From Wickerhamiella versatilis (lineage: Eukaryota), in assembly GCA_030867685.1 (NCBI GenBank), contig JAQOWU010000002.1, forward strand, positions 1-33,932: 33,932 nt of DNA. The letters run 5' to 3'. Every line of letters starts with the position of its first letter. Position 1 is the stretch's first letter. Position numbers and translations under genes: made by a program. A model generated the notes under the pieces. It did not search any database. It worked only from the letters and a program-made list of their open reading frames with translations, and was not told the DNA's origin. Below, piece after piece: positions 4,084 to 31,263 of the stretch.

Positions 4084-4155
4084 GCTGATTTAGCTTAATT
4101 GGTAAAGCAATCGTTTTGTAATCGATAGTTAGTGATTCGAGTTCACTACTCAGCA
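4084..4155 (+). tRNA. trnT: tRNA-Thr(UGU)
   Basis: Cloverleaf, anticodon loop TT-TGT-AA. Confidence 0.9.
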
Positions 4156-4225
4156 TTGCATTATAAATAATACTAAGTAATATAAATATACTCAGCATCA
4201 TTAATTAATTTATATTAAAAAATAA

Positions 4226-4313
4226 GAACATATGACTGAGTGGTTTAAGGTGGAACACTTGAGTTGTTTTATTCCATATTTTGGAATCACAAGTTCGAAT
4301 CTTGTTATGTTCG
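4226..4313 (+). tRNA. trnS: tRNA-Ser(UGA)
   Basis: Cloverleaf with long variable arm, loop CT-TGA-GT. Confidence 0.92.
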
Positions 4314-4335
4314 ATTTATAAATAATATATATATA

Positions 4336-4561
4336 TTATATTTATATAATAAAGTCATTAATTATAATATTCATATATTATTACAGAAAATATAATACAT
4401 TAAATATATATATTTAATGTATATTGAAATAAAAAAATATATATTATTAATTATAATAATTAATAATATAATAAAATATTATATATATAAGAATTATATA
4501 TTATATATTATATAGTTTTTAGAGGTAAAATTTATATAAAATAATGCTTATTTAAATATAA
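4336..4561 (+). ncRNA. rnpB: Probable RNase P RNA
   Basis: P4 halves AAAGTCA (4351) and ATAAAATAATGCTTAT (about 4536-4551). Internal ACAGAAA (4383) and TGAAA (about 4425) motifs. Terminal P1 TTATATTTA/TAAATATAA. Lies between tRNA genes. Confidence 0.7.
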
Positions 4562-4589
4562 TTAAATATATATTATTTATAATTATATA

Positions 4590-4663
4590 CTGATTGTAGT
4601 AGAATTGGTATATACATTAAATTTAGGATTTAAATTTTATGGGTTCAAATCCCATCAATCAGA
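4590..4663 (+). tRNA. trnL: tRNA with UAG anticodon, probably Leu, short variable loop
   Basis: Acceptor CTGATTG/CAATCAG, discriminator A, 7-nt loop TT-TAG-GA. Confidence 0.8.
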
Positions 4664-4725
4664 TAAGATAATCAAATTAATCAAATGATATGATTTTTTT
4701 TTATATAAAATAATTAATAAACTAA

Positions 4726-4796
4726 GCACTCATAGTTTAATGGTAAAACATTAATCCACGAAATTAATGATATAAGTTCAACTCTTATTGGGTGTG
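4726..4796 (+). tRNA. trnR: tRNA-Arg(ACG)
   Basis: Cloverleaf, loop CC-ACG-AA. Confidence 0.88.
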
Positions 4797-4817
4797 ATTA
4801 TTTTATTTAATTAAGAT

Positions 4818-4889
4818 AAGAGTATAGTATAACGGTTATTATTTGCGACTTCAAATCGTGAGATAGGGGTTCAATTCCTCTTGCTCTTG
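4818..4889 (+). tRNA. trnW: tRNA-Trp(UCA)
   Basis: Loop CT-TCA-AA, consistent with TGA=Trp. Confidence 0.92.
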
Positions 4890-4970
4890 TTAATAATATT
4901 TATATAAATAAATATTATTATATAAAGTAAAGTTTAAAAGTAAATAATAATAATAATTAAATAAATTTAT

Positions 4971-5041
4971 GATCTTATAGTTAAATGGTATAACGTTAGA
5001 TCTTCATTCTAAAAGTGTAGGTTCAATTCCTACTAAGATTA
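4971..5041 (+). tRNA. trnE: tRNA-Glu(UUC)
   Basis: Cloverleaf, loop TC-TTC-AT. Confidence 0.9.
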
Positions 5042-5051
5042 TAAATTATAT

Positions 5052-5124
5052 CGCAATATAGTGTAATTGGTAAACATATAAGATTCATGATCTTATGCTA
5101 CAAGTTCAAATCTTGTTATTGCAA
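5052..5124 (+). tRNA. trnM: tRNA-fMet(CAU), initiator
   Basis: CAT anticodon, C1-A72 mismatch, resembles the yeast mitochondrial initiator (GCAATA...TATTGC). Confidence 0.88.
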
Positions 5125-5148
5125 TTAAAATTTAAATTAAAATTAAAT

Positions 5149-5220
5149 AGAATGATAGCTTAACGGTTAAAGCCAACCACTCATAATGGTTTGATCAGAG
5201 TTCGATTCTCTGTCGTTCTA
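5149..5220 (+). tRNA. tRNA(CAU), probably Ile (AUA-reading), otherwise Met
   Basis: Loop CT-CAT-AA. It is the third CAU tRNA besides the initiator-like and elongator-like ones, and ATA is used at Ile positions. Confidence 0.8.
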
Positions 5221-5283
5221 TAAAACCTCATATTAACATTTAATATTAAATAAATTAATATAAATATTTAATAAATATTAACT

Positions 5284-5341
5284 ACGACGAGGGAATCAAG
5301 AACTCAATACTAAAGTATTAGTTCGATTCTCTGTCGTTCTA
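5284..5341 (+). repeat. Fold-back unit derived from the tRNA(CAU) 3' end
   Basis: AGTTCGATTCTCTGTCGTTCTA is duplicated and preceded by ACGACGAGGGAATCAAGAACT. Confidence 0.9.
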
Positions 5342-5353
5342 TCTATTAATTAA

Positions 5354-5362
5354 ATATAAGTA
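5354..5362 (+). promoter_or_regulatory. Promoter ATATAAGTA upstream of trnL-Q-K-P-V
   Basis: Exact consensus match. Confidence 0.55.
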
Positions 5363-5399
5363 GTAATTATTATAATATATATATGCATAATTATTATAA

Positions 5400-5481
5400 A
5401 TCAATCTGGTGAAATTGGTAGACACGTTATAGTTAAGTTATAATGCTTTTATGCATGAAGGTTCAAATCCTTCGATTGATA
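5400..5481 (+). tRNA. trnL: tRNA-Leu(UAA)
   Basis: Loop GT-TAA-GT, long variable arm. Confidence 0.92.
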
Positions 5482-5587
5482 TTTTTTTAATTATAAAATA
5501 AATAGATATATAATTTATCTATATATATTTTTTATCTTATATTATTCTTTTTTAATAAATATTGGACTATAATCCAATATTACATAT

Positions 5588-5662
5588 TAGATTGTAGACT
5601 AATTTGGCAAGTCAGTTTAAATTTGAGTTAAGATGATGTAAGTTCGAACCTTACCAATCTAA
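5588..5662 (+). tRNA. trnQ: tRNA-Gln(UUG)
   Basis: Acceptor TAGATTG/CAATCTA, loop AT-TTG-AG. Confidence 0.85.
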
Positions 5663-5724
5663 AATATATAATCTAATATAAATAAATAAATATTTATATA
5701 ATATATAAAAGGATTTATATATAG

Positions 5725-5796
5725 GAGTATATAGTTTAACGGTTAGAACATCTACCTTTTAAGTAGATTATATGAGTTCAATTCTCATTATACTCA
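5725..5796 (+). tRNA. trnK: tRNA-Lys(UUU)
   Basis: Loop CT-TTT-AA. Confidence 0.92.
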
Positions 5797-5859
5797 ATAT
5801 TCCTTTCTTAGGGAAATATTCTTTAATATAGTAATATTAACTAATAATAGATATTAATT

Positions 5860-6013
5860 AGTATAATGGAGAATGAACTTACCCTTGGGTCGTTCAATTC
5901 TCATTATACTCAATAAAAGAAACAATAAATAATAATTATTATAATAGTAATATTATTTATTTCAAATAACTAGTATAATGGAGAATTAACTTAATTCAAT
6001 TTTCATTATATTA
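5860..6013 (+). repeat. Two tRNA-Lys-derived fold-back units (5860-5912, 5972-6013)
   Basis: GTTCAATTCTCATTATACTCA is identical to the trnK 3' end and is preceded by its near reverse complement. Confidence 0.9.
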
Positions 6014-6041
6014 TAATTATTAATAATTTATAAATATAAAT

Positions 6042-6113
6042 CAGACATAGGTTAAATGGTGAGACGCTGATATTGGGCATCAGAGATAGTTAGTTCGATT
6101 CTAGCATGTCTGA
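6042..6113 (+). tRNA. trnP: tRNA-Pro(UGG)
   Basis: Loop AT-TGG-GC. Confidence 0.9.
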
Positions 6114-6134
6114 ATATTATTTTATAATATAAAA

Positions 6135-6207
6135 AAGGTATTAGTTTAATGGTTAAAACGTCTATTTTACACATAGAAGAGTAATAGTTCAATTCTATTA
6201 TACCTTA
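6135..6207 (+). tRNA. trnV: tRNA-Val(UAC)
   Basis: Loop TT-TAC-AC. Confidence 0.92.
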
Positions 6208-6271
6208 GTCAAAAACACTATATATAATTATTATTAATATAATATTAAATATTATATTATGATTAATCACT

Positions 6272-6774
6272 AGGTATAATGGAATTATGAACCCCTTTTA
6301 GGAGTTCAATTCTACAATTAATAATTTTATTATTAATTGTAATATCATTTAATAAAATTAAATGATATAGTATACCTTATAAATTATTATAGATTATTCA
6401 ATTATATTAACGGTATAATGATGAATTGAACTAATCCTTGGATAGTTCAATTCTACATTTAATAATTTTATTATTAAATGTAATATCATTCAATATTATT
6501 GAATGATATAGTATACCTTATCCAACAAACATTATATTAATAATATTATTAATATAGTAATATATTGATTATAAGTTATATATTCTAGGTATAATGGAAT
6601 TAAACCTCTATGAAGTTCAATTCTACAATTAATAATTTTATTATTAATTGTAATATCATTTAATAAAATTAAATGATATAGTATACCTTATAATTATTTA
6701 TACATTATTTAACCATATTAATGGTATAATAATGAATTGAACTCACCTTTGGTCGTTCAATTCAGTATATCTTA
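6272..6774 (+). repeat. Array of four tRNA-Val-derived fold-back units (6272-6379, 6412-6520, 6587-6690, 6723-6774)
   Basis: Each unit starts GGTATAAT, contains GTTCAATTC and ends TATACCTTA (TATATCTTA in unit 4), like the trnV 3' end. Confidence 0.9.
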
Positions 6775-6844
6775 GTAAAAATACTATATATAATAATTGT
6801 ATAACACAAATGTTAACGTTACTTATATAATACAATTAAGTAAT

Positions 6845-6932
6845 TGAATATGACAGGAATTGAACCTATATAGCAAATATATGCTACTAAGACTACAGCT
6901 TAGCTAGTAATACCAATATACTAAACATATCC
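6845..6932 (-). tRNA. trnY: tRNA-Tyr(GUA)
   Basis: Loop CT-GTA-GT, long variable arm. Confidence 0.9.
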
Positions 6933-7134
6933 ATAAATTATAATAATTTAATATATACCTCTTAGTTCACTATATTTAAACTTTGGATAGTGAAATATAT
7001 TACTTTTATAAATTATATATATAATATATATTATATATATTGTAAAATAAACTACTAATAAGAATTAATTTAATTAAAATTAAGTTAATGATTATTATTA
7101 ATTATATAATAATCAACTAATTAAATTGATTAAA

Positions 7135-7884
7135 TTATTGTTCATTTAATCAATCTAAGAATGCTGGTAATGAAACAGCATCAATAGCTATAGGCATTTC
7201 ACTATGAGCTACTCCACATAATTCACTACATTGACCATAGAATCTACCTTCACGTTGGATAATAGTACTAGCTTGTAATAATCTACCTGGTGTAGCATCT
7301 AATTTTATACCTAATGCAGGTACTGCAAAACTATGTACAACATCACCACCTGTAACAATAAATCTAATATGAGTATCAACAGGTAATACTACTCTAGTAT
7401 CAACATCTAATAAACGTAATTGTCCAAATTCTAACATATCATCAGGTATTACATATGAATCAAAACTAATAGTTTCACCACTATCATTTATAAAATCTGA
7501 ATATTCATATGATCAATATCATTGATATCCTATACATTTAACTGTCATAGCTGGATCTATAACATCATCACTTAAATATAATAATATAAATGATGGGAAT
7601 GCTATTAATGTTAATATAACAATAGGGAATAATGTTCATACAAATTCTAATAATGATCCATGTACTAAATATTTATAACTCATTTTATTATTATTAAATG
7701 TTCTTAATAATGTTATTAATAAATAAAATACTAAACATAATATTAATATTATATAAAACATAATTGTATCATGTATTTCTGTTATACCTTCAGCTATTGG
7801 TGATGCTGAATCTTGTAAATATAAACCTCAAGCTTTAGGTACATCATTATTTACTATAAAATTTAAATTTAATAAATTTAACAT
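7135..7884 (-). CDS. cox2: Cytochrome c oxidase subunit 2 (249 aa)
   Basis: MLNLL...NDVPKAWGLYLQD, GYQWYWSYEY, CuA motif [12 protein letters not shown]. Confidence 0.97.
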
Positions 7885-8118
7885 ATTTATTCTTTTTTTT
7901 TATTTCTTGAAATATTTTAATATATTTCCCTTATATAATTTTTAATTAATTTACGAACTCAATAATTTATTATTATTATTGTTTATCGTTATATATATAT
8001 ATTATTATAAATTAAATTATTTACATTAATTATTATAATTTATTAATTATTAAAAAGTATATTGTAAAATTAAATATTATTTTTATATTATTATTTTTAT
8101 ATAATTATTAAAAAATAA

Positions 8119-8382
<264 letters not shown>

Positions 8383-8398
8383 TTATTATTTTTAATAT

Positions 8399-8407
8399 TA
8401 CTTATAT
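8399..8407 (-). promoter_or_regulatory. Promoter ATATAAGTA upstream of atp9-cox2
   Basis: Exact consensus match 50 nt before the atp9 ATG. Confidence 0.7.
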
Positions 8408-8424
8408 ATTTTATATTATATTAA

Positions 8425-9420
8425 TTAAAAATGACATAAAGAAACATTAATATTATATTTACCATTTTTATTAATAATATATGATTGTGATTTAGTTAAA
8501 TTAGCTGAATAATTATTTAATTTAAAATTTCTAATAGGATTATAATTTTTTAAAATTAAAGGATTAATATTTAATTTACCATTATTATTATAATATCTTA
8601 ATGCTCTAGCATTACTTTCTGAATTATAATTTTTACCTCTAAATTTTCAATCATATCCAATAATATATTTATATAATAAATTATTATTAATAATTAAATC
8701 TTTATTATAAAAATATAATGGTTTTTCATTAATATAATATTTATTATGATTATTATTTGATAATAAATAATCTATTTTATTCATTATTGATATTGTATTT
8801 AATTTATCTGATATAAAATAATTTAATCATGGTGTACTATTATTATTAACTTTAATATTATTTATTTTATCAAATTTAGGATATTTAGATATAAATTTAC
8901 TTAATGATTTACTATAAATATTACTATCTAAATAATCATATTTTAATATTATTGGTTTAATTTCTAAATTTATATCATTTATTTTATTTATTTTTAATAT
9001 ATTATCTATAATTTTAGATATAAATATATTATTATATTTATTTAATGGATTATATATAAATAATATTATTTTTATAGTATTATTATTAAATAATAATATA
9101 GGTTCTCTATATAATATATTTATATATTTATTATTATTAGTATTAGGTAATTTAATAATTTGATTTAATATATAACTTATATATCTATTTATTAAATGTT
9201 TATTATTTAATTTATTTAATAAATTATTATTATTAAAATTATATATTATTTGTGAATAATCTCATTTATTATTATAATTATTTAATGATAATTTATTAAA
9301 ATTATTATTATTATTATTTAATAATCTCATTTCATTTATTTTATTATTATTTAAATGTTTAATTAATTTATATATTATATTATTAATATATATCTTTCTA
9401 ATATTATTATTAATTTTCAT
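8425..9420 (-). CDS. rps3: Ribosomal protein S3/Var1 (331 aa)
   Basis: Asn/Ile/Lys-rich frame ATG9420 to TAA8425 with NKWDYSQIIYNFN, LYKYIIGYDWKFRGK and a C-terminal INKNGKYNINVSLCHF typical of Var1. Confidence 0.9.
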
Positions 9421-9543
9421 CTAATTAATTTTATTTAATTATTCTTATTGTCTATATATTATATAAATATTATATTTATATAATCTTTTTTTTTACTCTA
9501 TAAATTATTATTTAATATAAATTTATTATATTAAATATTTGGT

Positions 9544-9616
9544 TATTTAGAGCAGGGATTGAACCTACATTGATTACATATGAGGTAACTGTTTTAACCA
9601 ATTAAACTATCTAAAC
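9544..9616 (-). tRNA. trnM: tRNA-Met(CAU), elongator-like
   Basis: Loop CT-CAT-AT, resembles yeast mitochondrial elongator Met. Confidence 0.88.
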
Positions 9617-9663
9617 GATTATTTATTTATATAATATATATATATATATTATATATTTATAAT

Positions 9664-9736
9664 TGTCCCTAACATGAATTGAACATATACACCTAAATCT
9701 TCAATTTAGTGCTCTAACCATTTAAGCTATAGGGAC
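9664..9736 (-). tRNA. trnF: tRNA-Phe(GAA)
   Basis: Loop TT-GAA-GA. Confidence 0.92.
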
Positions 9737-9759
9737 TTAAAGGGGTTAATATGGGGTAA

Positions 9760-11325
9760 GGAAAGTAAAAAGATTTATAACCCGCAGCAGATTCATCTAC
9801 CACAACTATATTTCAACTTCTCAGGAGTATAAAATAATAAAAACTTTATAATTAAATAATAATAAAAATTATAATTAATAAGAAAATTATAATAATTAAA
9901 TATCATTTATGCTTAAAAGATTAATTAATTATTTCATTCTCCCAAATGATGAGTAATTAGTACCAGTAGCATTAAACTTCACGATATTTTTCTTAAATAC
10001 CATTACTGACAATTCCTACAAAATAATTCCGAATTTCAGGAATTAAATTATAAACTTATATTTAGTAATCTAAATAATAATTAAAATTATTTTTATTATT
10101 AATTATTAATATTTAAATTTTATTATTTTTTTGTATCACGTGTGCCGCCCATAATATAAAAGCCATGATGACTTGACTTGTTCTATATTAAAAAATCTCT
10201 TAAATTTTAAATTAATATTAATCAATAAATAATTATTGATCATTATTAAATATAGATTGCGTTCATTTATGGAATTAACCAAATATCTCACAACATGAAC
10301 TTAAGACAGCTATGTAGCATTTGTAATAAAATTAATAATTTTATTATGCAAATTATGGTAAGATTCTCGGGGATTATCGAATTAAGCCACATGATCCACT
10401 GTTAATAAACTAAACGGCCTATTGTTTTAAATTTCAACTCTGGATTATACTTTTCAGGTGGTATATTTTAAATTATTGTTCAAAGAAATTATAATTTCTT
10501 CGTAATATACATCGTTTACTCCTAAAACTAATTGGTTAACAAGTCCAACTTGATAATTTAGGCTTCATTATCTCAACGTCAATAAGATTCTTATTTAATA
10601 TCTTCATTTATTGGTTGTCTAATAAATATTCTTAAATTTAACTTTTACTTTTATTTTTCATTAAATATATTATCTTATTCTAGATCTTTTAAATTTAAAT
10701 TAATAATAATATTATTATTAATTTAATGATCCGTCTACTAATCCTTTAAACCTTTAATGTAAACTACTCGCCCTAGCTGCATAACCGAAACTTCTGGCAC
10801 AGCAATTGGTTAGGACTATTATATTACTTTATTCATTATATAAAATTTGTAATATTTAAACTTTAATTTATATTTTATTTAATATTATCATATTAAATTA
10901 ATAATATGATCGGATTTTATCATTAAATATTCATTTTTATAGATTACTCGTTCAAACTTTCGTTCATTGACAAATATTATTTACTGCTGTATCTATTAGA
11001 TATTAACCATATTTCAAGGTTAACGTGACTGTTCCAACGTTAATTGACAGTTAAACATATTAATGGCTTGATAATATTTTAAATCATCAACTACCTAATG
11101 TTATATATAACTTGACTAAAATCAATTAAAATTCTTATTTTAATCTTTATTTATTATTCACTATTTAAATGAAATTTTAGTTTAAATTATTATTAAATAC
11201 TCACGTCTTCGCAACATCATAATTATCCTTATTCATTAAAATAATTATAATTACTATGTCTTACTTGCATGTATATTCATCTATATAGTAGTTTTACTGA
11301 GCCAACATCAAACTCTTTAAATTTA
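9760..11325 (-). rRNA. rns: Small subunit rRNA
   Basis: AGAGTTTGATGTTGGCTCAG, GTGCCAGAAG, AAGTCAAGTCATCATGGC, GGCGGCACACGTG and the terminal helix GTAGATGAATCTGCGGG. Ends are approximate. Confidence 0.95.
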
Positions 11326-11438
11326 ATTATATATATATATAATTAAGATTTCTATATATAAAATTTATTATTTTATATATATCTATATATTATATATATA
11401 TATTTACTTAATATTCACTTTAATTTTTTTTTATTATT

Positions 11439-11447
11439 TACTTATAT
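11439..11447 (-). promoter_or_regulatory. Promoter ATATAAGTA upstream of rns
   Basis: Exact consensus match. Confidence 0.7.
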
Positions 11448-11460
11448 ATTATTAATTTAA

Positions 11461-11532
11461 TGGAGTTATCGAGATTCGAACTCGAGTTGTTAACGTGCAA
11501 AGTTACTATTCTACCAACTAAATTATAACCCC
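11461..11532 (-). tRNA. trnA: tRNA-Ala(UGC)
   Basis: GGGGTTA acceptor, loop TT-TGC-AC. Confidence 0.93.
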
Positions 11533-11558
11533 TTATATATATATTATAATATATAATA

Positions 11559-11629
11559 TAAGCTTTACTAGAATCGAACTAATATATCAAAATTATCAAT
11601 TTTGCACTTTACCATTAAGTTAAAAGCTC
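11559..11629 (-). tRNA. trnI: tRNA-Ile(GAU)
   Basis: Loop TT-GAT-AA. Confidence 0.9.
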
Positions 11630-11737
11630 ATAATACTTTGTTATTATGGGCTTTAAACAACATATAAATATTGTTAAAAGCCCATTAATTTATTATTAAT
11701 TACTTTAATATTAAATTAATAATATATATATATTATT

Positions 11738-11810
11738 CGAACTAAGTTTGATTCGAACAAACATCCTTTTACTCGACAAGTAAACACTTTACCTATTAAG
11801 CTAATAGTCC
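11738..11810 (-). tRNA. trnD: tRNA-Asp(GUC)
   Basis: Loop TT-GTC-GA. Confidence 0.92.
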
Positions 11811-11867
11811 TACAATTAAAAAAATATATATATTTGATTTGTATAATAAATATATTTTATATATATG

Positions 11868-11939
11868 GGTCACTATAGAGATTTGAACTCTAATCTAATG
11901 TACCACAAACATTTGCTTTACCATTAAGCTATAATAACC
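11868..11939 (-). tRNA. trnH: tRNA-His(GUG)
   Basis: Loop TT-GTG-GT. Confidence 0.92.
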
Positions 11940-11981
11940 ATTTTTTTCTTTTTTATTTATATATAATAATTATATATTATT

Positions 11982-11990
11982 TACTTATAA
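11982..11990 (-). promoter_or_regulatory. Promoter TTATAAGTA upstream of trnH-D-I-A
   Basis: Consensus variant. Confidence 0.55.
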
Positions 11991-12148
11991 TATATATATA
12001 ATATATATATTCTTATCTATAATATAAAGAAGAATATATAAAATTATAATTATTGTTATAATTAATATAGTAAAATAGAATAATAATAATTCAACTATTA
12101 ATAAGAATTTAATAATTAAATTTAAAGATAGATAATATTATTTATTAT

Positions 12149-12598
12149 TTATTTATATAATGAATCATTATTTTTTTTATCATTAGATAAATTTTCAATA
12201 GAAGTAGCTAAATTTTGTTTATTTAATAATTTAATATGATTTTTTTTAATAGATAAAGCATTAGTATTAAATTCATAAGCAAAACCAAAAATTAAAATCA
12301 TAGTAAATAAGATAATAATAGTTAAACCATAAGAATTAGTGATATATAAAACTAAACCATAAGGTAATAAATTACTGATTTCTAAATCAAAAGGTAAGAA
12401 TAAAACAGCAATTAAAATGAAAGCTACATGATAAGAAGATCTAGTTTGAACAAAACTAGTTAAACCACATTCAAAAGGAGATATTTTTTGATTATAAGTA
12501 TTTTTAAGACTTAAATATTTATTAACTCCAAATAATATTAAACCTAAAACTGGTACTAAACCACCAAAGATTAAATAACTATAGTTTATATATGCCAT
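12149..12598 (-). CDS. nad3: NADH dehydrogenase subunit 3
   Basis: KISPFECG and LFLPFDLEI motifs. Confidence 0.96.
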   Translation of the reverse strand: MAYINYSYLIFGGLVPVLGLILFGVNKYLSLKNTYNQKISPFECGLTSFVQTRSSYHVAFILIAVLFLPFDLEISNLLPYGLVLYITNSYGLTIIILFTMILIFGFAYEFNTNALSIKKNHIKLLNKQNLATSIENLSNDKKNNDSLYK

Positions 12599-12600
12599 TA

Positions 12601-14160
12601 TTAAATATTATTAAAATAGTTAACTATAACTATACCATTTTGATAAATATCTAAATATAATAATGGGAAAATTATTAATAAAGCTAAGATACTAATAATA
12701 TAACAATAAATATAATTATTATTATTTATACTATTATTATTAATAATATTCATTTTATATAATTCATTATTATTTAATTTAGATGAAGTAGAATATATCA
12801 TTTTAATTATATAACCATAATAATAAGCAGTAATAATACTTACTAATATTAATAAAATACTAGTAAATCAATAACCACTTAATAAACTACTAATTAATAT
12901 ATAATATTTACCATAAAATCCTAATAAAGGAGGTATACCCATAAATGAAGATAAACAAATAATAATAACAATTGATAATGATTTATTATAACTTATTATA
13001 TCTATAATATCACTTAAATATAAATTATGAGTATAATTTTTATTAGATTTTAAATTATTATCATCAGATGATATTCTTTTATAATATAATCAATTATTAT
13101 AATACATTATTATAAATATTAAACTCATAAATATAGTAAAATGAGTTAAACTATATTGAGTTATATAGAATATATAACTAAATATAGAATATTGATTATT
13201 ACTTCATATTGATAATAATATATAACTACTATTAGCTAAACCACTATAAGCTAATATACGTTTAATACTAAATTGAGGTAAACCACCTAAACTACCAATA
13301 ATCATAGAAGAAATTATAAATAATTGGAATAATAAATTAAATTGTCAATTATCAAAAATATTATTAAATATAATATTTAATGTTAATATAAATGTTAATA
13401 TACTAATTTTAGGTAATATACTAATTCATAATGTAACTATAGTAGGTACATTAGTATATATATTAATTAATCAATTATGTATAGGAGCTAATCCTATTTT
13501 AAAGAATAATCCTATAAATACAAATATAAATCCTATAATATAATTTAATGATTCTATATTATTAGGTTTATATGAATTTAAATAATAATTTAATTCAATT
13601 AAATTAATTAATCCTGATTGATTATATATTATAGTTAATCCAAATAATATTATAATTGAAGCTAAACTACCTAATAAAAAATATATTAATCCATTTTTTG
13701 AACTATATATTCCTACTGATGTTTCATTTTTATAATATGTAGCTGTTATTAAATATAATGAATAACTTTGTAATTCTATAGCTACAAATATTATTAAACT
13801 ATTTATTGAATCTATAAATAAACATATTGATAATATATTAAATAATATTAATAATATATATTCTTTTATATATTTTGTATTATTATAATATTCACTATAA
13901 TTATATAATATTATAAAATATATTATACTTAATATTATTATTAAATCTTTTATTATAATATTATATGATGTTAATAAAAATGTATTATTAAATAATAATA
14001 TTCCATTATTTATTAATGTTAATGATACACTATCATTTAATATTATTATCATATATAACATAATTAATATGCTAATATGAATTAAATTTTTATATTCTTT
14101 TATTGTAAATATACTATTTGAACTTATTAATATTAATGATAATAATCCTATTAATAACAT
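12601..14160 (-). CDS. nad2: NADH dehydrogenase subunit 2 (519 aa)
   Basis: AIELQSYSLY, FFKIGLAPIHNW, IKRILAYS, MGIPPLLGFYGK in one frame with TGA=Trp. Confidence 0.95.
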
Positions 14161-14347: not shown

Positions 14348-18506
<4,159 letters not shown>

Positions 18507-18867: not shown

Positions 18868-19881
18868 TTAAGTTAAAGAATTAAATAAGTATAATATAGA
18901 AGGAATAAATATTAATAAACCGAATAAGATAGGTAAGAAAATAGTTCAACATAATTTAATTAATAAATCGAATGTGAATCTAGGGAAAGAAGCTCTTATT
19001 CAAATAAATAAATACATAAAGATACATAATTTAAATCCGAATGATAAACCATAACTTAATCCTTCTAATAAAGAATTAAATAAAGAAGGTTCATAATTTA
19101 ACATTAAAATATTAGGATATAAATAACCACCAAAGAAGAAGATAACAGAAGCAGCTGACATAAATATAAGGTTACCATATTCAGCTAAGAAGAAGAAAAC
19201 GAAAGGACCAGCTGAATATTCAGTAAAGAAACCAGCAACTAATTCATTTTCAGCTTCAATTAAATCAAATGGAGGTCTACCAGTTTCAGCTACAGTACTA
19301 ATAAAGTATAAGATAGTTAAAGGTAATAAAGGTACACAATATCAAATAACTCTTTGACTTTCAATTAATTCAGTATAATTTAAAGTAGAAGCAAACATAA
19401 TAACAATAATACCTACAGTACCTAAAACTAATTCATAACTAACTAATGCTGCAGTAGATCTAATACTACCTAAGAATGAGAATTTATTATTAGAACTTCA
19501 ACCAGCTAATAATGATCCAAATACACCTAAACTACCTATAGCTGATGCAAATAATAAACCATTATCTAAATCACCTAAAGTTAATGAAGGACCAAATGGT
19601 ATAATTATTCAACCTAATAATGCAGTTATTAATGTTATCATAGGACTAACTATTAATATAAATGAATTAGCTTCTTTAGGTATTATAATTTCTTTAACTA
19701 ATAATTTAACTGCATCAGCAAATGCTTGTAATAATCCATATCATCCTACTATATTAGGACCTATTCTACGTTGCATATATGCCATAGTTTTACGTTCAGC
19801 TACAGTTAAATAAGCTATTGTAAATAATACACATACTAAAAATAATAATACTTCAGCTATATTTAAAATTATTAATCACAT
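18868..19881 (-). CDS. nad1: NADH dehydrogenase subunit 1 (337 aa)
   Basis: [36 protein letters not shown]. Confidence 0.97.
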
Positions 19882-21848: not shown

Positions 21849-22119
21849 AATTTTTATTTTTATTATTTATTAAATTTAATTAATAAATATCTATTTATTT
21901 TTTTTTATTTAAATTTAATAATATTATAATTAAATAAATTAATAATTTATTATAATATTATAATTTAATTTTTTATTTATATTTAAACTCCCATAAATAA
22001 TTAATATTAAATATTTATGAGGTATATTTATTATATATAATAAGTAAAATAAGATATATATATTTTATTATAATTTATTAAAGAGATAATAATATTAATT
22101 AATTTAATAAATATTATTA

Positions 22120-22884
22120 TTAGTGTAAGTATACACCATCTTTAATATAACTACAAGTTAAGATACAGAAAACATAAGCTTGTATTGCTGATATAGCAAA
22201 TTCTAATATTTCAATACCTAAAATTATAGTTAATGGTATAATACCAGCAAAGAATAAGATAAATGAAGATGACATAACATCAAATAATAAACCACATAAT
22301 ATAGTTAATAATAAGTGACCTGATAAAATATTAGCACCTAATCTTAAACCTAAACTAACACTACGAGCTATATTAGATATACCTTCAATTAAAACTAATA
22401 AAGGTACTAAAGGTAATGCTGTACCTGAAGGTATAAATAAACCAAAATATTCTAAATTATGTTTAGCAAAACCTAATATAGTTACACCTAATCATATAGT
22501 TACACTTAATGATATAACAAAGATTAATTGTGAGTTTATAGCAAAATTATAAGGTACCATAGATACTAAATTACCAAATAATATAAATATAAATAATGAA
22601 TATATAAATGGGAAAAATACTGTACCTTTAGGTCCTATTTGACTTAAAACCATATTATGTATTGTTGAATATAATGCTTCTACTGATAAATTTCAATTTG
22701 TTGAAACTAATTTACCATCTTTTAACATATATATATTTAATATATAAAATAATCCTAATACTATTAATACATATAATGTAAATGATGTTATATTTAAAAA
22801 TGATACATTAATTATTGATGATGATATTCCTAAAAATGTATTTATTTCAAATTGTTCTAATGGTGATTTTATTAAAAATAACAT
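22120..22884 (-). CDS. atp6: ATP synthase subunit 6 (254 aa)
   Basis: SPLEQF, ARSVSLGLRLGANILSGH, IQAYVF, YIKDGVYLH. Confidence 0.97.
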
Positions 22885-23068
22885 TTCTAATTTAATTTTT
22901 ATTTATATTTTTTATTTTCTTCAAATTTAATATAATAAATATAATTATTATATTTTGAAATCAATTTAATTAATATTAATATATATTAAATAACTATTTA
23001 TTTAATATATATCTATAATATTATATATGATATGTTATCATAATTATTATGAAGTTATATTATATTTA

Positions 23069-23215
23069 TTATAATTTTATAATAAATATACGACTTAAAT
23101 ATATTGATAATATTCTAGGTAATACAAATTTAGAACTTAAATAGATCATAATTAATATTATTGTATAACCTCAGAATATTTGATTTAAGAAAAAGAATGG
23201 TACTAATTGTGGCAT
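23069..23215 (-). CDS. atp8: ATP synthase subunit 8 (48 aa)
   Basis: MPQLVPFFFLNQ...LPRILSIYLSR. Confidence 0.96.
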
Positions 23216-23503
23216 AAATAAGATTTATTATACATAAATTGATACTTCGATATTAAAAATTTATATAAATTAAATATATTAAATATATAATAATATATAA
23301 ATTTAATAAGTTCAATATTTTATTATAAATATAAATTTAATTTTATATTTATATTATTATATATTAATATATAATTATTGTAAAATAAACTAATATAATT
23401 ATATTATTTTAAATAATTATATATATATAATATTATATATATATTATATTAAATAAAATAAATTTATTTATTTTAAGTAGTATTGTATTAATTTAATTAT
23501 TAA

Positions 23504-26500
23504 TTAACGTTTTATAGCTAAATAGAATAAAACATTTTCTAATATTGAAACTGCTGGTAATAATACAATAAAGTAACCAAAATAGAAGTAAGTACATAAG
23601 CTACCTACTGTAATAAATGGTGGTTCAATATGTACAGCACCTAAAACAGCTAATAATAAGAAATTAACTACAAAGAATCCAAATAATAATTTAGATAATA
23701 CTTTAAATGCATTACCTCTAATTATAGAGAAATCTACAAAAGGTAATAATAATAATACTAATATAGAAGCTAACATAGCTAATACACCTAATATTTTTGA
23801 TTCAATATATCTTAATATAGCATAGAATGGTAATAAATAGAACTCTGGTACTCAATTTATATTAATCAAAATGTTTCCATTTTGTTTAGACTATGTCATA
23901 TAAATAATAAATTTAATTATTATTTATAAGGGCACTTCACCTAATTAAATTATTAATTAGATTACGAGATATTATTATTGGTATTAATTCAATCTCTAGT
24001 CGTTGAACGTTTTTATATCATTATTATATATATATTAATTATATAATAAATTTAATCTATTATAATAAATTAAATATACCGATATAAACTTCGCTGCAAG
24101 TTATCATAGTTTAATTAATAATTAATTAAACCTTAGATTTTCTTGTCAATTCACCCTTTTTTCATATTATATATTATATAATATGCCACATTATTAATTA
24201 TATGGCAGCAGGAGTTACTAAAGGATTACCAGGTATATTATTTTCAGGATCACCTAAATATTCTGGATAATAACTAATTAAGAAGAAGTATATAAATAAG
24301 AATGCAAATATTGTTATTGTATCTTTAAATAAATAATAAGGATGCATTGGTATTCTATCAATATTAGCTGTTATACCTAATGGATTATTACTTCCATGTG
24401 TATGTAATGCTAATATATGCATACAACTTACAGCAGCAATTATAAATGGTAATAAATAATGTAAACTGAAGAAACGTTGTATTGTAGGATTAGATACTGA
24501 TGATCCTCCTCATATAACAATTATATTATCAAAGAATTCATTTAAAATTCTTTATCAAAATGTTTCCATTTTGTTTAGACTATGTCATCAACCAATAATA
24601 AAATAATTTATTTTATTATTAATTGTTGGGCACTCGTGTCAAGATTATTGTTGATACTACTCACTTGTTAGTCGTTGAACATTCTTATTACAAAAATTAA
24701 ATAATTATTTAATTTTATATCGTAATAAGCTTTGCTGCAAATTATCATAATTAAATAATTAATTATTTAATCTTAGATTTTCTTGCAATTCACCCAATTA
24801 TTTCAATAATTATCATATTTATTTAATATTAATAAATATTTTAATTAAAGGAGCTCTTTAATTTGAGGATTTAATTAAATTAAATTGAACTCTGCTAATG
24901 GTTTACCTAAATATGGTATTGTAGTTACTAAATTTGTAATAACTGTTGCCTATTAATAAAAGTCCTTAATATTTAATTATTAAAAATAGGAATATAATTA
25001 AAATTATATCATTAGGATTTTTAATTAAATATAAGTTTAGTTTTTAATTAAACTAAATAATTTATCCAAAAATAATAATTATTATTATTTTTAAATTATA
25101 TTAAATTTAATATTTAATATAATCTGGTAAAATAAATTATACCATGTACCAAATATATGTATTAATATATATTATAAAATTTGGCCTTGTGAATATATTA
25201 TATATAAATCCATAAATTTATATAATATATCTTTATTTCGAGTGCACATTAAACATCATTTCAGACATCCATTATTGATCCACTCTGTCGGGATAATATA
25301 ATTTACCCACGGCTCTCATTATTTACCAAATAATTTTGACCAGTTTTCAATAATGTTGCATTATAAATATCAAATATATATAGATATTATATTTGTTAAT
25401 TTATTTTTAATTATATATTGCATAAATTAATTATTTATAATACTATATAATATTATTAATATTAAAAATTAGGATTTAATTTAGTAATTAATTTATATTT
25501 CATTGAAGGATGAATATAAGGTTTTACTATATTTATTAAATTACTCATAGAATTAGTATTAAAATATAAATTATATTGGTTTTTATATCCAGATTTAATA
25601 ATTGAAACATCTAAATTATATTTATTTTTTAATATATTTATTAATATTAAATGTTCATTATAATTAAAATTATTAGATGCTATTTTTAATCCATTATTTA
25701 ATTTACCTCCATCATCCATAATTCATATAGCTAATGCTAATGGAGTTAAATATATATCAATATCATTAGGTAAAATCTTTTTTTTATTAATATATCATTT
25801 ATCATAAATTGGATTAAATATATCATAAGTTCAAGTTGAAAATCTTATTATTTTTCTTAATTTTCCTTTATTACCTAAACGTGTTTGTATTTTAGGTATA
25901 TTAGAATTACAATAACCTAAATTACTAATTAATTTATGTAAATATAATAGATAATCTTCATGACTACCTTCTTGATAAAATGAAAATCTTGTACCTGTTC
26001 CATTTTTACGTTTTTCACCATGACAATCACCTAATAATGATCCATAAATTATTGATAATAAATCAATATGTAATGGTCCAAAATTTAATAATTCATTTTT
26101 ATTAATACGTTTATTTTTTATTTTATTTTTATTTAATTCTAAATTTAATAATATTAATAATATTACATTTGAGGCGCACAATTCACCTCAGTGTGACATT
26201 TGCCCATAAACAAGACAATACTAATTTTTATATTAAATAAATATAATTATTTATTTAATTTTCGACTGTGCATTAAACATCATTTCAGATATCCATTAGT
26301 GTTCCAGTCTGTCGCGATTATTTATGTAACCGACGATCTTGTTAATAATTTAATAATTATTAATTTTAATCGTTTTCACTAATGTTGCCATCATATAAAT
26401 TTAATTTATATGATAATAATATATAAAATATTATTTATCAATCCATAATTATTTCTCATAAAAGTTATCTAATTATAGTATATTATATATAATAATATAA

Positions 26501-28003
26501 TGATAGACTATCAAATTATAAATATTTATTAAATTAAATAATAAATTATATTCTATAAATATTTTATTTATTATATGAAATAATAAATTTAGTTTTATCT
26601 TTAGTTAATAATAAACCAGATTTTAATGGTTTAATCATTTTAATCTTAATATTAGATATATCTTTAACAGAATTATATTCTAATATATTATTATTATTTA
26701 GATATTCTATAAATAATTTAGGTATATAAATATAACCTTTATTAATTGATCTTTTAATAGTTTTAGTACTACAACATAAATAATTAGCTGCTTTACTAAT
26801 ACTATAAAATTCACATATATATTTATTATTTTCATCAAATAAATATATAGGTTTACCAAATAATTTAGCTATTTTAATTCTACCAGCTCTTGAAATATAA
26901 TCTTTACTACGATTAAGAGCTATTTCTCTTAATTTATGTTTAGATTCTTCACTTCATTTACCCTTACGATTAATTTGTAATTGTCTTAATAATTCACGTC
27001 TTTCATCTGTAAAAGCTATTTTCATTTTATTTAAACTTTCTTCATTATGCTTATAACCTAATGTATTACCTGCTTCAGGTACTATATTATATTTAGGCAT
27101 TAATAAACTAATATAAGATGTTTCTAAATTTAATAATTCTTGATTAATTTTTTTATCATATTTATTATTATATTCATGATTATTTATATATTCTAATATA
27201 CCAAAAATAAAATTATTTAATCCATATTTTTTAATAGATCTAGCTACTAATTTATTACCATTTAAATGATATAAATGATTACTAAATCTTGTATATAATC
27301 TATTATATATTGCTGAACCTATATAATAATTTTTAGTTATTTTATTAATTATAATATATATTCCTGATTTATTTCTTAATTTTTCACGAATTTCTACTCT
27401 AACTGGTTCTTTATCAACATTATCTCATCAATTTTCTATATTAACTTTACCTAATATATCATTAATTATTTGTTGAGAATCAGTTAAATCTTGAGGTTTA
27501 TTATTATTATTTTTTAATAAAAATGAAGATGATGAAAATAATCTTTTATTTAATAATTTATTATTTAATTTAATATATTTATAATTTGATTTTGGGCTAT
27601 TGTTTTGTTTACCCATAAATGCAGTAATTATCATTAATAAGAATATTACTACTCCTATTGTTCATAATGCTACTCTTGGTTTTCTATATGATCCATAATA
27701 TATACCTCTAGCCATATGTAAATATACAAATATAAAGAAGAATCCAGCTCCATTAGAATGTGCATATCTTATTAATCATCCATAATGCACATCAATCATA
27801 ATGTGTTGAACAGATAAGAATGCTAAATCTAAGTTAGAACTATAATGCATTGCTAAAAATATACCTGTAGCTAATTGTATTACTAAACATGTACCTAATA
27901 AACTACCAAAATTTCAGAAATAACTAATATTTGCTGGTTCTGGTGCATCTATAACAAAACTATTAGGTATTGATAAAAATTCATTAGATTTTCTTAATGC
28001 CAT
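23504..28003 (-). CDS. cob: Apocytochrome b (384 aa); exons 28003-27611, 26220-26185, 24949-24889, 24517-24202, 23852-23504
   Basis: [18 protein letters not shown]^[12 protein letters not shown]^[28 protein letters not shown]. Exons sum to 1155 nt. Confidence 0.97.
23853..24201 (-). mobile_element. Group I intron cob-806 (IA-like), no ORF
   Basis: Interrupts GCC AT^A GTA CCA and ends in G. IGS GTGGCA pairs with exon TGCCAT. Confidence 0.9.
24518..24888 (-). mobile_element. Group I intron cob-490 (IA-like), no ORF
   Basis: Interrupts GAG T^TT ATA TGA and ends in G. Core TCAACGACTA and GACATAGTC. Confidence 0.9.
24950..26184 (-). mobile_element. Group I intron cob-429 (ID-like, bI2 position)
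   Basis: Interrupts TGA GGT^GCA ACA and ends in G. Core near 25240-25360. Confidence 0.92.
25462..26184 (-). CDS. LAGLIDADG (type 2, bI2-like) maturase/endonuclease, in frame with cob exon 2
   Basis: [10 protein letters not shown] and LAIWIMDDG motifs. Confidence 0.92.
26221..27610 (-). mobile_element. Group I intron cob-393 (ID-like)
   Basis: Follows GGT at CDS nt 393 and ends in G. Core near 26260-26390 (CGACAGACTGG). Confidence 0.92.
26564..27610 (-). CDS. GIY-YIG homing endonuclease, in frame with cob exon 1
   Basis: [20 protein letters not shown]...RF..H, followed by [21 protein letters not shown] and other NUMOD-like segments. Stop position read by eye. Confidence 0.9.
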
Positions 28004-28202
28004 TTTTATTATTTTTATTTATATATATATAATTATTAATAATAAATTAATAATCTATCTATTAATTAATATTATATATTTTTTTAATATAAATTTTTAT
28101 TATAATTTATTATAATTTATTATAAATTTTATATTATTAAAATTTATTGATTATTTAAATTTATTATACAAATAACTAATTAAATTTAATTAATTATTAA
28201 CT

Positions 28203-28211
28203 TACTTATAA
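28203..28211 (-). promoter_or_regulatory. Promoter TTATAAGTA upstream of cob
   Basis: Consensus variant, correct orientation. Confidence 0.6.
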
Positions 28212-28396
28212 TAAAATTAATTGTATATTATATAATTAATGTAAAATAAACTATATTTAATAATTATTTATTATTAATAATTTTTTTTTAATCTTAATTA
28301 TAATATTAACTTTAATATTTAATTAATTAAATATCTTAATATATATATTATTATATAGTAGATATTATTATATAATTATAATTTTAATTATTTTAT

Positions 28397-30415
28397 TTAT
28401 ATTATAGATAATAAAGAAGTAAATAATAAGAATAAGATAACTAAATGAGGTATATTAAAGAATATAGAAGTTAAGATAAATAATAAGATAGTTAATAATA
28501 AGAATAATAAATAGAAATTAAAGTGTCTTATACTATGATTATTGTTTAAATTATTAATAATGAAATGGTTAGAAGATATAGAAATAGTTTTATAACTTAA
28601 TAAATTTAAACTATTATATAAACCTTGAGGACCATAAATATATAATAAACCTTTATCTAAATAATTATTTAAATAATAACCAAAATATAAAGAAGATCTT
28701 AATATTTGATTATTAAATAAATTATCTAACATAAATTTAGTATTAGTATATGTATAATAATTAATAAATAGATAATCAGATAATGAATTTAATTTATGTA
28801 AATTAAAGTAAGGAGGTAATAATTTATAATTAAATTCATAAATAAATAAGATAAAGCAAACAAAGAAGATAGTTAAGAATAAAGGTAATAATTTAATATA
28901 TAAAGGTAAATTAAATTCAGTTTCAATAAGAGATAAATGATTAGGATGTGTAAATAAACTATTAAATGGAGTACCCATACCTAAATAAAAATCTCTAGTT
29001 CAATAACCTATAAATATAGATAAAATAGCTAATATAACCATAGGTAAAATTAAAGGTAAATTAAATTCATGAACGATATAATAAGAATATTTATTAGCAT
29101 TAGGTATAGAGAAGAAAACTAAATAAATTAATCTAAAGCTATAAATAGTAGTTAAAGTAGCTGAAATTAAAGCAAATCAATAAACGATATAACCTGAAAT
29201 ATTATAAATACCATAACTAGATTCAATAATAATATCTTTAGAATAGAAACCACTTAAACCAGGAATAGCCATTAAAGATAAAGAACCAATTAACATACAA
29301 ATATATGTTATAGGAGTAAATTTAGATAAACCACCAAATGTTCTAATATCTTGAGATTCAGTAACTATAGAATGTATAATAGAACCAGCTGACATAAATA
29401 ATAAAGCTTTAAACATAGCATGAGTAAATAAATGATAAATACTTGCATTATAATTAGATAAACCAATAGCTAATACCATTAAACCTAATTGTGACATAGT
29501 AGATAAAGCAATAATTTTTTTCATATCATTAGATACTATAGCTATAATACCAGCTATTAAAGTAGTTAAACCACCTATTCATAATATTAATAATAAAATA
29601 ATAGGAGTATATTCTAATAAATAACAACTTCTTAATAATAAATAAATACCAGCACAAACTAAACATGCAGCATGTAATAAAGCACTAACAGGTGTAGGAC
29701 CAGCCATACTATATAATAATCATATATGTAAACCTAATTGAGCACTTTTAGCTATAGTACCTATTAATAAACATAACATAATTAATGTTATTATATCACT
29801 ATTAATATATTGACTTAAACTAAATACTGTACTAAAATTTAATGAACCAAATGTTATCATCATTAATAATAATCCTATAGTTAAAAATGTATCACCAAAT
29901 TTATTAACTAATAATGAACTTAATCCACTTTTAATTGCATTAATTACTGTATATCAATGACTAATTAATAAATATGATGCTACACCTATTAATTCTCAAC
30001 CTACAAATAATATAGCATAATTAGATCCTGTAACTAATATTATCATAAATCCTGTAAATAATGATAATATACTAAAAAATCTTTGTTGATATGGATCATG
30101 TGACATATATCCTGTAGCATATAAATGTACTAATGTTGATACTAAACATATAGGTAATAATAATGATACACTTAATTCATCAATAATAAATGCTCATTCT
30201 ATATTTATATTATCTACATTAATTCATGTACCTAAATTTATACTATAAATAATATTATTAACCATTATATTATAATATAAATTTAATGTTATTAATAATG
30301 ATATAAATATACAAAATGTTGCTATATATTTACTACTATTATATCCTATTAATCTTCCCATTAATCCTGATATTAATGATCCTATTAAAGGTAATGTTAA
30401 TAATGTTAATACCAT
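28397..30415 (-). CDS. nad5: NADH dehydrogenase subunit 5 (672 aa)
   Basis: [54 protein letters not shown] in one frame. Confidence 0.97.
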
Positions 30416-30417
30416 AT

Positions 30418-30687
30418 TTATTCTTCATCTATATTTAAATTACCTTTTAATCTATAATATAATACTAATATACTTAATCCTATTGCTGATTCTGCTCCAG
30501 CTATTGTTAATATTACTGCTGTTCACATTAATCCTATTGCATCATCAAAATATGCACTACTTAATATTATATTTAATGTACATCCTACTAATAATACTTC
30601 TATTGCTATAAATAATATTATTATATTACGTCTATTAAATATAAATCCTAATAATGCTATTATAAATATTATATAACTTATAATCAT
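30418..30687 (-). CDS. nad4L: NADH dehydrogenase subunit 4L (89 aa)
   Basis: [24 protein letters not shown]. Abuts nad5. Confidence 0.96.
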
Positions 30688-30754
30688 TTATATTCTATTT
30701 TTATTATTGATTATTCTTTCTCTTCTTTAATAATCTTATTCTATCCTTAATATT

Positions 30755-30763
30755 TACTTATAT
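30755..30763 (-). promoter_or_regulatory. Promoter ATATAAGTA upstream of nad4L-nad5
   Basis: Exact consensus match, intergenic, correct orientation. Confidence 0.65.
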
Positions 30764-30777
30764 TTATTTTATTTATT

Positions 30778-30848
30778 CATCCTAATGAAGATTCGAACTT
30801 CAATTGAGGCTTTAGAAGAACCATGTTTTACCATTAAACTATTAGGAT
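30778..30848 (-). tRNA. trnR: tRNA-Arg(UCU)
   Basis: Acceptor ATCCTAA/TTAGGAT, loop CT-TCT-AA. Confidence 0.9.
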
Positions 30849-30864
30849 TAAAATTTCTGATTTT

Positions 30865-31051
30865 ATCCTTAATTATAACATATCAAAGATATGTTATATT
30901 AGGATTTTTTTATTAAAAATAATCCTCAATTATAAAAAACATGAAATGTTTTTTATATTAGGATATAAAATATATTTTATATCCTCAATAATAAGAGATT
31001 AAAAATCTCTTATATTAGGATATTTACGAAGTAAATAATCCTCAATTATAA
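30865..31051 (-). repeat. Three and a half hairpin units bounded by trnR acceptor-stem sequence
   Basis: ATCCT(C/T)AAT...TATATTAGGAT at 30865-30905, 30922-30964, 30981-31021, partial at 31038-31051. Confidence 0.9.
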
Positions 31052-31195
31052 ACTAAACTATATAATATATTTAATATAAATATATTATATATTAATAATC
31101 TATTTAATGTATTTATTTATTATTATATTATAGATAATATAATGATGATAATTTAACAATCTAAAGGTTAAGTTAAAATTCTCAATCCTTATCGA

Positions 31196-31263
31196 AGATA
31201 ATGATGAGAATTGAACTCATATCAATCGATTTGCAATCAATCTTATCAACCATGAGCATTATC
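31196..31263 (-). tRNA. trnC: tRNA-Cys(GCA), short with weak D arm
   Basis: Acceptor GATAATG/CATTATC, loop TT-GCA-AA. Confidence 0.85.

Follow-up and report, generated by a model that had tools for sequence, protein, structure and literature searches.

Setting of the elements in the mitochondrial genome

We analyzed a stretch of 33,932 bases with ~18% GC from Wickerhamiella versatilis (contig JAQOWU010000002.1), hereafter the window, in which several tRNA genes are accompanied by fold-back elements, that is, short repeats combining an inverted copy of one end of the adjacent tRNA gene with, in most cases, a direct copy of the same end. The window covers nearly the whole mitochondrial genome of a budding yeast (Saccharomycotina) that falls outside the well-studied clades. 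It encodes cox1-3, cob, atp6, nad1-6 and intron endonuclease open reading frames (ORFs; table 4), together with rnl (divided between both ends), rns, one group I intron and 25 tRNA genes, of which ARAGORN detected 24 and Rfam alone the remaining one, trnC. The plus strand carries rnl and 13 tRNA genes (4084-6207) and the minus strand all other annotated genes, and the two transcription units meet head-on at 6208-6844, which is the location of the element array beside trnV. The best named relative by cox2 is Blastobotrys (73%), and closer relatives, with cox2 ~81% identical, were seen as proteins.

Fold-back elements at the ends of tRNA genes

The elements do exist and have a clear link to tRNA ends. 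Those of the window, with the corresponding genes, are the following (z, fold z-score).

5148-5221, plus strand: trnM2(CAU), parent gene (ARAGORN, Rfam)
5282-5342, plus strand: Met2 element, with inverted arm 5282-5304, 15-nt apex 5305-5319 and direct copy 5320-5342
5725-5796, plus strand: trnK(UUU), parent gene (ARAGORN, Rfam)
5860-5915, plus strand: Lys1 element, with inverted arm 5860-5878, apex 5879-5891 and direct copy 5892-5915
5972-6012, plus strand: Lys2, a degenerate second trnK unit without the GC apex (z = -3.8; nhmmer E = 0.038)
6135-6207, plus strand: trnV(UAC), parent gene, last gene of the plus-strand unit (ARAGORN, Rfam)
6272-6379, plus strand: Val1 unit (z = -5.9)
6412-6520, plus strand: Val2 unit, architecture as in Val1 (z = -7.4)
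6587-6690, plus strand: Val3 unit, a near-copy of Val1 (z = -5.2)
6723-6798, plus strand: Val4 unit, with inverted arm 6723-6742, apex 6743-6754 and direct copy 6755-6798 (z = -4.5)
31196-31263, minus strand: trnC(GCA), parent gene (Rfam only, 31.3 bits against a threshold of 29; missed by ARAGORN)
31132-31193, minus strand: Cys element, with inverted arm 31172-31193, an apex-like stretch and a degenerate direct copy 31132-31157
11646-11685, minus strand: trnI(GAU) hairpin, upstream of the gene at 11558-11630
30840-31052, minus strand: trnR(UCU) array of tandem two-hairpin units, upstream of the gene at 30778-30848
4190-4198, plus strand: 9-mer direct repeat of the trnT 3' end (other copy at 4148), without a fold

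In the direct arms, the copy sets in with the initial base of the T-loop region and usually reaches the mature 3' end of the tRNA or a point no more than 3 nt from it, Val4 being the exception. The inverted arms are bulged, whereas the direct arms are identical to the parent gene: the Met2 direct copy reproduces the last 23 nt of trnM2, from the T-loop to the 3' end, at 23/23 positions, the Lys1 direct copy matches 5776-5799 at 24/24, and a trnG element on L001, a related metagenome contig described below, does so at 21/21. The inverted arm of Met2 is imperfect, and its hairpin folds at -23.5 kcal/mol (z = -5.3); the fold z-score of Lys1 is -3.5. From the T-loop of the parent to the copy the distance is 116 nt for Lys, 117 nt for Val and 121 nt for Met2, and 119 nt for trnG of L001. 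The range of ~116-121 nt recurs as the spacing at four tRNAs and as the TRF period of the trnR array. The spacers that separate tRNA genes from inverted arms are weakly similar to one another (z = 2-4, against mononucleotide shuffles only, a lenient null).

Lys1, Val1-4 and Met2 have an acceptor-like stem of ~7 bp with a discriminator base after it. Lys1 and Val1 have lost the first acceptor pair (1-72), and the inverted arm of the L001 element ends at tRNA position 68. When both strands were folded in sliding windows of 70 nt, few local structures in the genome were as stable as the elements, with individual z-scores from -3.5 to -7.4, trnC excepted (-1.6).

The trnV array is the most elaborate. 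Val1 consists of a T-loop fold-back (6272-6314) and inserted AT palindromes (6315-6339 and 6342-6368) inside a 7-bp acceptor-like stem, and Val1-3 fold as such a stem around three arms because the insertion of the two AT palindromes separates the T-stem part of the direct arm from its acceptor part. A single, perfectly compensated pair distinguishes Val1 from Val2 in each of the two inserted palindromes. Val1 and Val3 are near-identical, and a repeat of 6294-6441 at 6605-6752 is 89% identical; the array thus consists of a block of two units (311-315 nt) that has been duplicated. In Val4 the direct copy extends 23 nt further, into a copied trnV trailer (repeat 91%); the resulting 44-nt repeat of trnV 3' end plus trailer brackets the whole array, which forms an insert of 568 nt.

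The inverted arm of the Cys element starts 2 nt past the 3' end of trnC. Its scan scores are 24 (inverted) and 28 (direct), and its degenerate direct copy was absent from the preliminary description of this DNA. In the minimum-energy fold of the trnC precursor, the 3' half of the tRNA pairs with the trailer instead of the acceptor 5' strand.

At trnI and trnR(UCU) the copied end is the 5' end. One arm of the trnI hairpin (z = -5.3) matches the tRNA 5' end at 10/11 positions and contains a 9-mer that occurs only twice in the window. The trnR(UCU) array has units of ~58 nt, the TRF period of 116 corresponding to two units, and its fold z-scores are -5.1 and -6.2. Copies of a 9-mer from the trnR(UCU) 5' end recur in register at 30840 (inside the gene), 30897, 30956 and 31013, and the first 9 nt of the gene are the first unit of the array register; the same 9-mer has 13 occurrences in the window. 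Three of the units have the same outer stem and unrelated, perfectly paired inner stems. Separately, 22 nt within nad1 (19097-19118) match the trnR(UCU) 5' end at 91% in direct orientation, and several chance matches score similarly.

A core shared among elements of different tRNAs

Lys1, Val1, Val2 and Val4 have a common core, composed of the complement of the T-loop, a short C-C-pyrimidine-T-T ... G-G apex and the T-loop GTTCAATTC. These core units differ in their outer arms only, which follow the T-stem and the acceptor 3' strand of the adjacent tRNA. The statement in the preliminary description that each element matches its neighbor and that there is no shared consensus thus holds for the outer arms and fails for the core. 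An nhmmer profile recovered all 7 of its training copies and nothing else at E < 0.05 in the ~743 kb of the window and the metagenome loci. RNAalifold predicted no pairs on a MAFFT alignment of the seven units, in which the bulges are misaligned. A weak hairpin at 6966-6994, between trnY and cox2, contains the Lys/Val apex motif on the strand opposite to local transcription (z = -0.6) and was not counted.

Statistical support for the association with tRNA ends

We compared the copies with 200 dinucleotide shuffles per 150-nt flank, after removal of other tRNA genes. The p-values for inverted and direct copies were 0.025 and 0.005 for Met2, 0.005 and 0.005 for Lys, 0.010 and 0.020 for Val, and 0.010 and 0.005 for Cys. 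For the direct copy at the remaining loci, p was 0.010 at trnT (inverted, 0.18), 0.025 at trnI and 0.10 at trnR. The trnY gene also scored (0.010 and 0.015), because its flank is the palindromic Val4 unit.

We also scanned 389 tRNAs, comprising the 25 of the window and 364 in the 50 tRNA-bearing loci among 80 fungal mitochondrial metagenome loci fetched, against a null of 1107 mismatched tRNA/flank pairs. Inverted 3'-end copies scoring at least 24 occurred at 3/25 tRNAs of the window, 0/364 of the others and 1/1107 mismatched pairs; at a score of at least 22, the counts were 3/25, 2/364 and 9/1107. Direct copies scoring at least 30 were found at 2/25, 3/364 and 1/1107, respectively.

These comparisons revise the earlier count of at least seven tRNA genes with fold-back copies of their own ends. 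Four are strong, the hairpins at trnM2(CAU), trnK, trnV and trnC, which combine an inverted and a direct copy, standing clearly above shuffles, mismatched pairs and other genomes, and two stand with additional arguments. For trnI, the very stable hairpin, the arm match and the rare 9-mer speak in favor, but only 9-11 nt are copied and p is just 0.025; for trnR(UCU), the array in register from inside the gene has to be set against a common 9-mer and the shuffle p of 0.10. At trnT there is a direct repeat of a 9-mer and no fold-back (fold z = +1.3), and this locus is withdrawn.

It is barely credible that the elements are chance matches in AT-rich DNA or an artefact of assembly. The trnT, trnI and trnR loci are individually near background, and short reads could have been mis-assembled into a wrong number of copies of the 311-315-nt Val super-repeat; the shuffle, mismatched-pair and cross-genome controls nevertheless oppose this explanation, and the same architecture is present on the independent contig L001. 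In addition, 14/24 listed sequencing runs (9 studies) contain 85-91% of sampled words of 4000-7100, these values being word shares only. According to the run records, near-identical DNA is present in a cultured organism and in food-fermentation metagenomes.

Elements in a related yeast and in a distant fungus

The closest DNA relative found is L001, a 1616-nt metagenome contig with a cox2 78% identical to that of the window and a promoter-trnG stretch 82% identical over 147 nt. Located between trnG and cox2, 71 nt past trnG, is an element with an inverted arm, an apex and the direct copy of the trnG 3' end (z = -5.1); positions 328-361 match the Val1 core of the window (6281-6313) with 88% identity over 34 nt (30/34 positions), and the profile search gave the element an E-value of 1e-7. 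At the sole position at which trnG differs between the two species, the direct arm has the variant of L001's own trnG. The trnG of the window has no such element, and the trnG-cox2 interval of three other loci (L020, L002 and L004) keeps the arrangement and lacks the element. Beyond the trnG leader, no specific match in other non-genic DNA, as distinct from long AT-rich ones, was present among the best 40 of 89 blastn matches, under stricter scoring. As judged from these sequences, the core family has moved between tRNA loci after the species split. In L002, ordinary GC clusters (9860-9915) occupy the trnG-cox2 interval where L001 has its tRNA-templated hairpin.

A Malassezia-like mitochondrial contig (L052; cox2 91% identical to that of Malassezia nana) has three elements with a fold-back and a direct copy, all from tRNA 3' ends.

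1762-1821 of L052: element of trnP
7744-7806 of L052: element of trnS
9600-9671 of L052: element of trnV

The trnS element matches 22/22 of the probe (z = -6.0), and the spacing is 105 nt for trnS and 101 nt for trnP. No core is common to these elements, nor do they have that of the yeast family, and the T-arm is all that their inverted arms cover. Because the architecture is alike and the sequence core is not shared, fold-back architecture of this kind arises independently in distant fungi. The trnR 'direct copies' of two further loci (L050 and L065) were rejected, as they look like the T-arm of an unannotated tRNA rather than an element. Neither viral nor prokaryote genome contigs contained the core motif; a cox2 scan of the viral contigs returned no relative, and that of the prokaryote genome contigs only five short contaminant pieces.

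A proposed origin by copying at tRNA ends

On balance, we lean towards the interpretation that the elements are DNA-level palindromic repeats, which would have arisen at tRNA ends through template switching or fold-back copying, multiplied in tandem and spread by means of T-loop homology. Where synthesis passes a tRNA gene end, it would switch template or fold back, and thereby leave an adjacent reverse-complement of the 5' end or of the segment between T-loop and 3' end. The trnC arm and the trnR(UCU) unit nearest its gene, both of which pair with the gene's own end, have the appearance expected of this initial stage. The hairpin, with a direct copy of the tRNA end, would then be duplicated ~100-120 nt away, sometimes in tandem; the resulting anatomy is visible at trnV, trnR and trnK, and the duplication process itself is the proposed part. 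Expansion of one hairpin into a small family did take place, and its mechanism may have been recombination, since the T-loop is the one sequence common to all tRNA genes, through which the core can recombine with any of them. Thereafter, gene conversion would hold the direct arm identical to the adjacent tRNA, and template switching within the hairpin would refit the opposite arm. The elements are probably neutral or selfish, and any effects on transcripts, such as blocking exonucleases or ending the plus-strand unit after trnV, would be secondary.

Several properties of the stems bear on this proposal. Over 16 elements, the stems contain 351 Watson-Crick pairs and 12 G-U pairs in the sense direction (9 G-U in antisense), and the better fold is the sense one for 6 elements and the antisense one for 7, with 3 ties. 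The neighbors of the elements are other tRNA genes or, for trnV, the end of a transcription unit, and no protein-coding gene, beside which an additional processing signal would be of use, adjoins any element in the annotation of the window. The Watson-Crick stems, the strand symmetry and the absence of coding-gene neighbors favor DNA palindromes over selected RNA structures. Template switching makes perfect stems and multi-base compensated changes (PMC8794818), and the compensated Val1/Val2 pairs and the unrelated but perfect inner stems of trnR are the pattern that it produces.

The preliminary description had offered a choice between a mutational process and functional RNA modules. The evidence leans to the former, with the amendment that the main elements form one conserved-core family, found at another tRNA in a relative. 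The same description had suggested a tRNA-primed origin, which we do not retain: copying from mature tRNA is unlikely because no copy, on reading its sequence, has the CCA or the complement that such copying would leave.

Three points weigh against an origin by template switching and fold-back copying. The model does not predict the near-constant spacing (116, 117, 119 and 121 nt, and 101 and 105 nt in L052) or the trnR period of 116. The 88% core identity between species whose spacers are otherwise unalignable could equally reflect functional selection. Likewise, direct-copy ends near the mature 3' end and an outer stem equivalent to the acceptor stem would also fit a mimic of processing-enzyme substrates.

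The last two points lead to a rather unlikely alternative, namely that the elements are functional RNA modules, acting as minihelix mimics for RNase P, RNase Z or the CCA-adding enzyme, or as exonuclease or transcription stops where the units converge after trnV; in a variant, the inverted arm may be selected to sequester the duplicated tRNA 3' half from mispairing with the real tRNA. The outer stem corresponds to the acceptor stem, with the discriminator base next to it, Val1-3 enclose three arms in a 7-bp stem, the core is kept in two species, the trnV array sits at the convergence of the plus and minus transcription units, and transcripts of Candida albicans appear to be stopped by GC-rich hairpins where transcription units end (PMC4618339). 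Yet no element scores as a tRNA: in 5200-7100, at E up to 10, RF00005 matched the five real tRNAs only, and trnY was matched by the related tRNA-Sec model. The stems lack strand asymmetry and contain few G-U pairs, tRNA punctuation is sufficient where there is no protein-coding neighbor, pair 1-72 is lost in Lys1 and Val1 while the L001 inverted arm stops at position 68, and different tRNAs carry elements in the two related species. We regard as still less probable a discrete small mobile element aimed at the tRNA T-loop that duplicates its target, the stretch from the T-loop to the 3' end. Such an element would resemble integrating elements that rebuild the 3' end of a tRNA gene, and would account for a spacing of 116-121 nt at four tRNAs in two species, for direct repeats that stop at the tRNA 3' end, for the 44-nt repeat around the trnV array, and for presence between trnG and cox2 in L001 and not in the same interval of L020, L002 and L004. 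However, the spacers are only weakly alike, target duplication leaves the match between inverted arm and target unexplained, ~95 nt encodes no enzyme (there is no ORF of at least 90 aa there), and the Malassezia-like analogues have no shared core.

Very improbable, finally, is a descent from decayed tandem duplicates of whole tRNAs, or from chimaeras of adjacent tRNA genes formed by unequal crossover at the T-loop. A distance of 100-121 nt approximates one tRNA plus one spacer, and the 5' acceptor strand of a tRNA is naturally an inverted copy of its 3' acceptor strand; but the inverted arms reach through the T-stem and T-loop, unlike a tRNA 5' half. For whole-tRNA duplicates or chimaeras, the upstream DNA was unlike the parental 5' part in 6/6 cases (z from -1.3 to +0.7) even though the 3' copies are 100% identical, and for chimaeras with the 5' part of any of the 25 tRNAs, 8/8 elements scored at or below the 95th percentile of the null; both were rejected.

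A bolder interpretation, which we put forward tentatively and think improbable, is that the core hairpin represents a new kind of mobile element anchored by T-loop homology, its stem being rebuilt from the acceptor and T-arm of the adjacent tRNA; each copy would then be a custom minihelix mimic, possibly excised by tRNA-processing enzymes, and would show how elements of the type of double-hairpin elements (DHEs; see below) originate.

Relation to known systems

Plant mitochondria contain tRNA-like t-elements, and RNase P, RNase Z and the CCA-adding enzyme act on acceptor/T-arm minihelices. The elements described here may be comparable in that an acceptor-like stem precedes a discriminator base within a polycistronic transcript; unlike t-elements, they do not match the tRNA model of Rfam and have no mRNA as a neighbor. 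Neurospora mitochondrial tRNA genes are reportedly flanked by GC palindromes with one conserved sequence unrelated to the tRNA, which are thus similarly tied to fungal mitochondrial tRNA genes and differ in not being templated by the neighbor. With integrating elements at tRNA 3' ends, the inserts have in common the bracketing direct repeat of the 3' end, and lack an encoded integrase or recombinase.

Template-switch hairpins (Monttinen and Loytynoja 2022, PMC8794818) resemble the elements in the reverse-complement beside its source, the perfect stems and the multi-base compensated tandem differences. Here, in distinction, tRNA gene ends have served as the source time and again, a direct copy is added and one family has a conserved core, the underlying events being inferred. 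Short fold-back inverted duplications at yeast DNA breaks (PMC11724301) are related. DHEs have been described in chytrid and fission-yeast mitochondria (PMC10085805) and DHE-like GC hairpins in the mitochondrial DNA of Candida albicans (PMC4618339), and palindromic repeats occur in Fusarium mitochondrial DNA (PMC7218506). Like the elements of the window, DHEs are short, intergenic, hairpin-forming, probably mobile and kept between species at different sites. Their two-hairpin feature is present in the trnR units and Val1-3, whereas Met2, Lys1, Val4 and trnI are single hairpins. DHEs are GC-rich with a sequence of their own throughout; the elements here are AT-rich except at the apex and take their outer arms from the adjacent tRNA end, and the published GC criterion for DHEs, >75% in 35 nt (PMC10085805), is not approached in a genome of ~18% GC. 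In cryptophyte mitogenomes, AT-rich palindromes likewise end at tRNA genes and a role in rearrangement has been proposed; their arms flank or include the tRNA, and a separate downstream hairpin of one tRNA-end copy is not described in the portion of that report available (PMC5910586).

No description of arms copied from the adjacent tRNA end was found in full-text searches, which covered the main text of mostly non-subscription papers, so an earlier description may exist; a term search of the Malassezia furfur mitogenome paper gave 0 matches for such elements. Hairpin repeats are common in fungal mitochondrial DNA, and here the arms can be traced to a named source, the end of the adjacent tRNA gene. 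The conserved core shows that one product spread among tRNA loci and outlasted a speciation, which provides a concrete and testable path by which a copying error can grow into a small family of repeats. Strains of a food-fermentation yeast could also be typed easily with the elements as markers, and, if the hairpins were cut by tRNA-processing enzymes, they would constitute a natural set of neighbor-specific minihelix substrates.

Other features of the window

Three tRNA(CAU) genes are present, presumably the initiator, the elongator Met and an Ile-reading tRNA, and the tRNA(UCA) called SeC by ARAGORN is a Trp tRNA for UGA, in agreement with table 4.

5051-5125: tRNA(CAU)
5148-5221: tRNA(CAU), the trnM2 listed above
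9544-9616: tRNA(CAU)

The divergent trnG-rnl region (33046-33140) contains AT-rich perfect palindromes that are unrelated to any tRNA and rank with the most stable folds found locally. A promoter-like motif, ATATAAGTA or TTATAAGTA, lies upstream of rnl, trnG, nad5, cob, trnN, trnS, trnH, rns and cox2.

5354 and 33218, plus strand: promoter-like motif copies
6820, 8399, 11439, 11982, 18737, 20918, 28203, 30755 and 33015, minus strand: promoter-like motif copies

One copy follows the Met2 element by 12 nt. The copy at 6820 is located directly beyond trnY and is directed into the trnV array; it could be a source of antisense transcripts or could form, together with the array, an origin-like unit of promoter plus hairpin.

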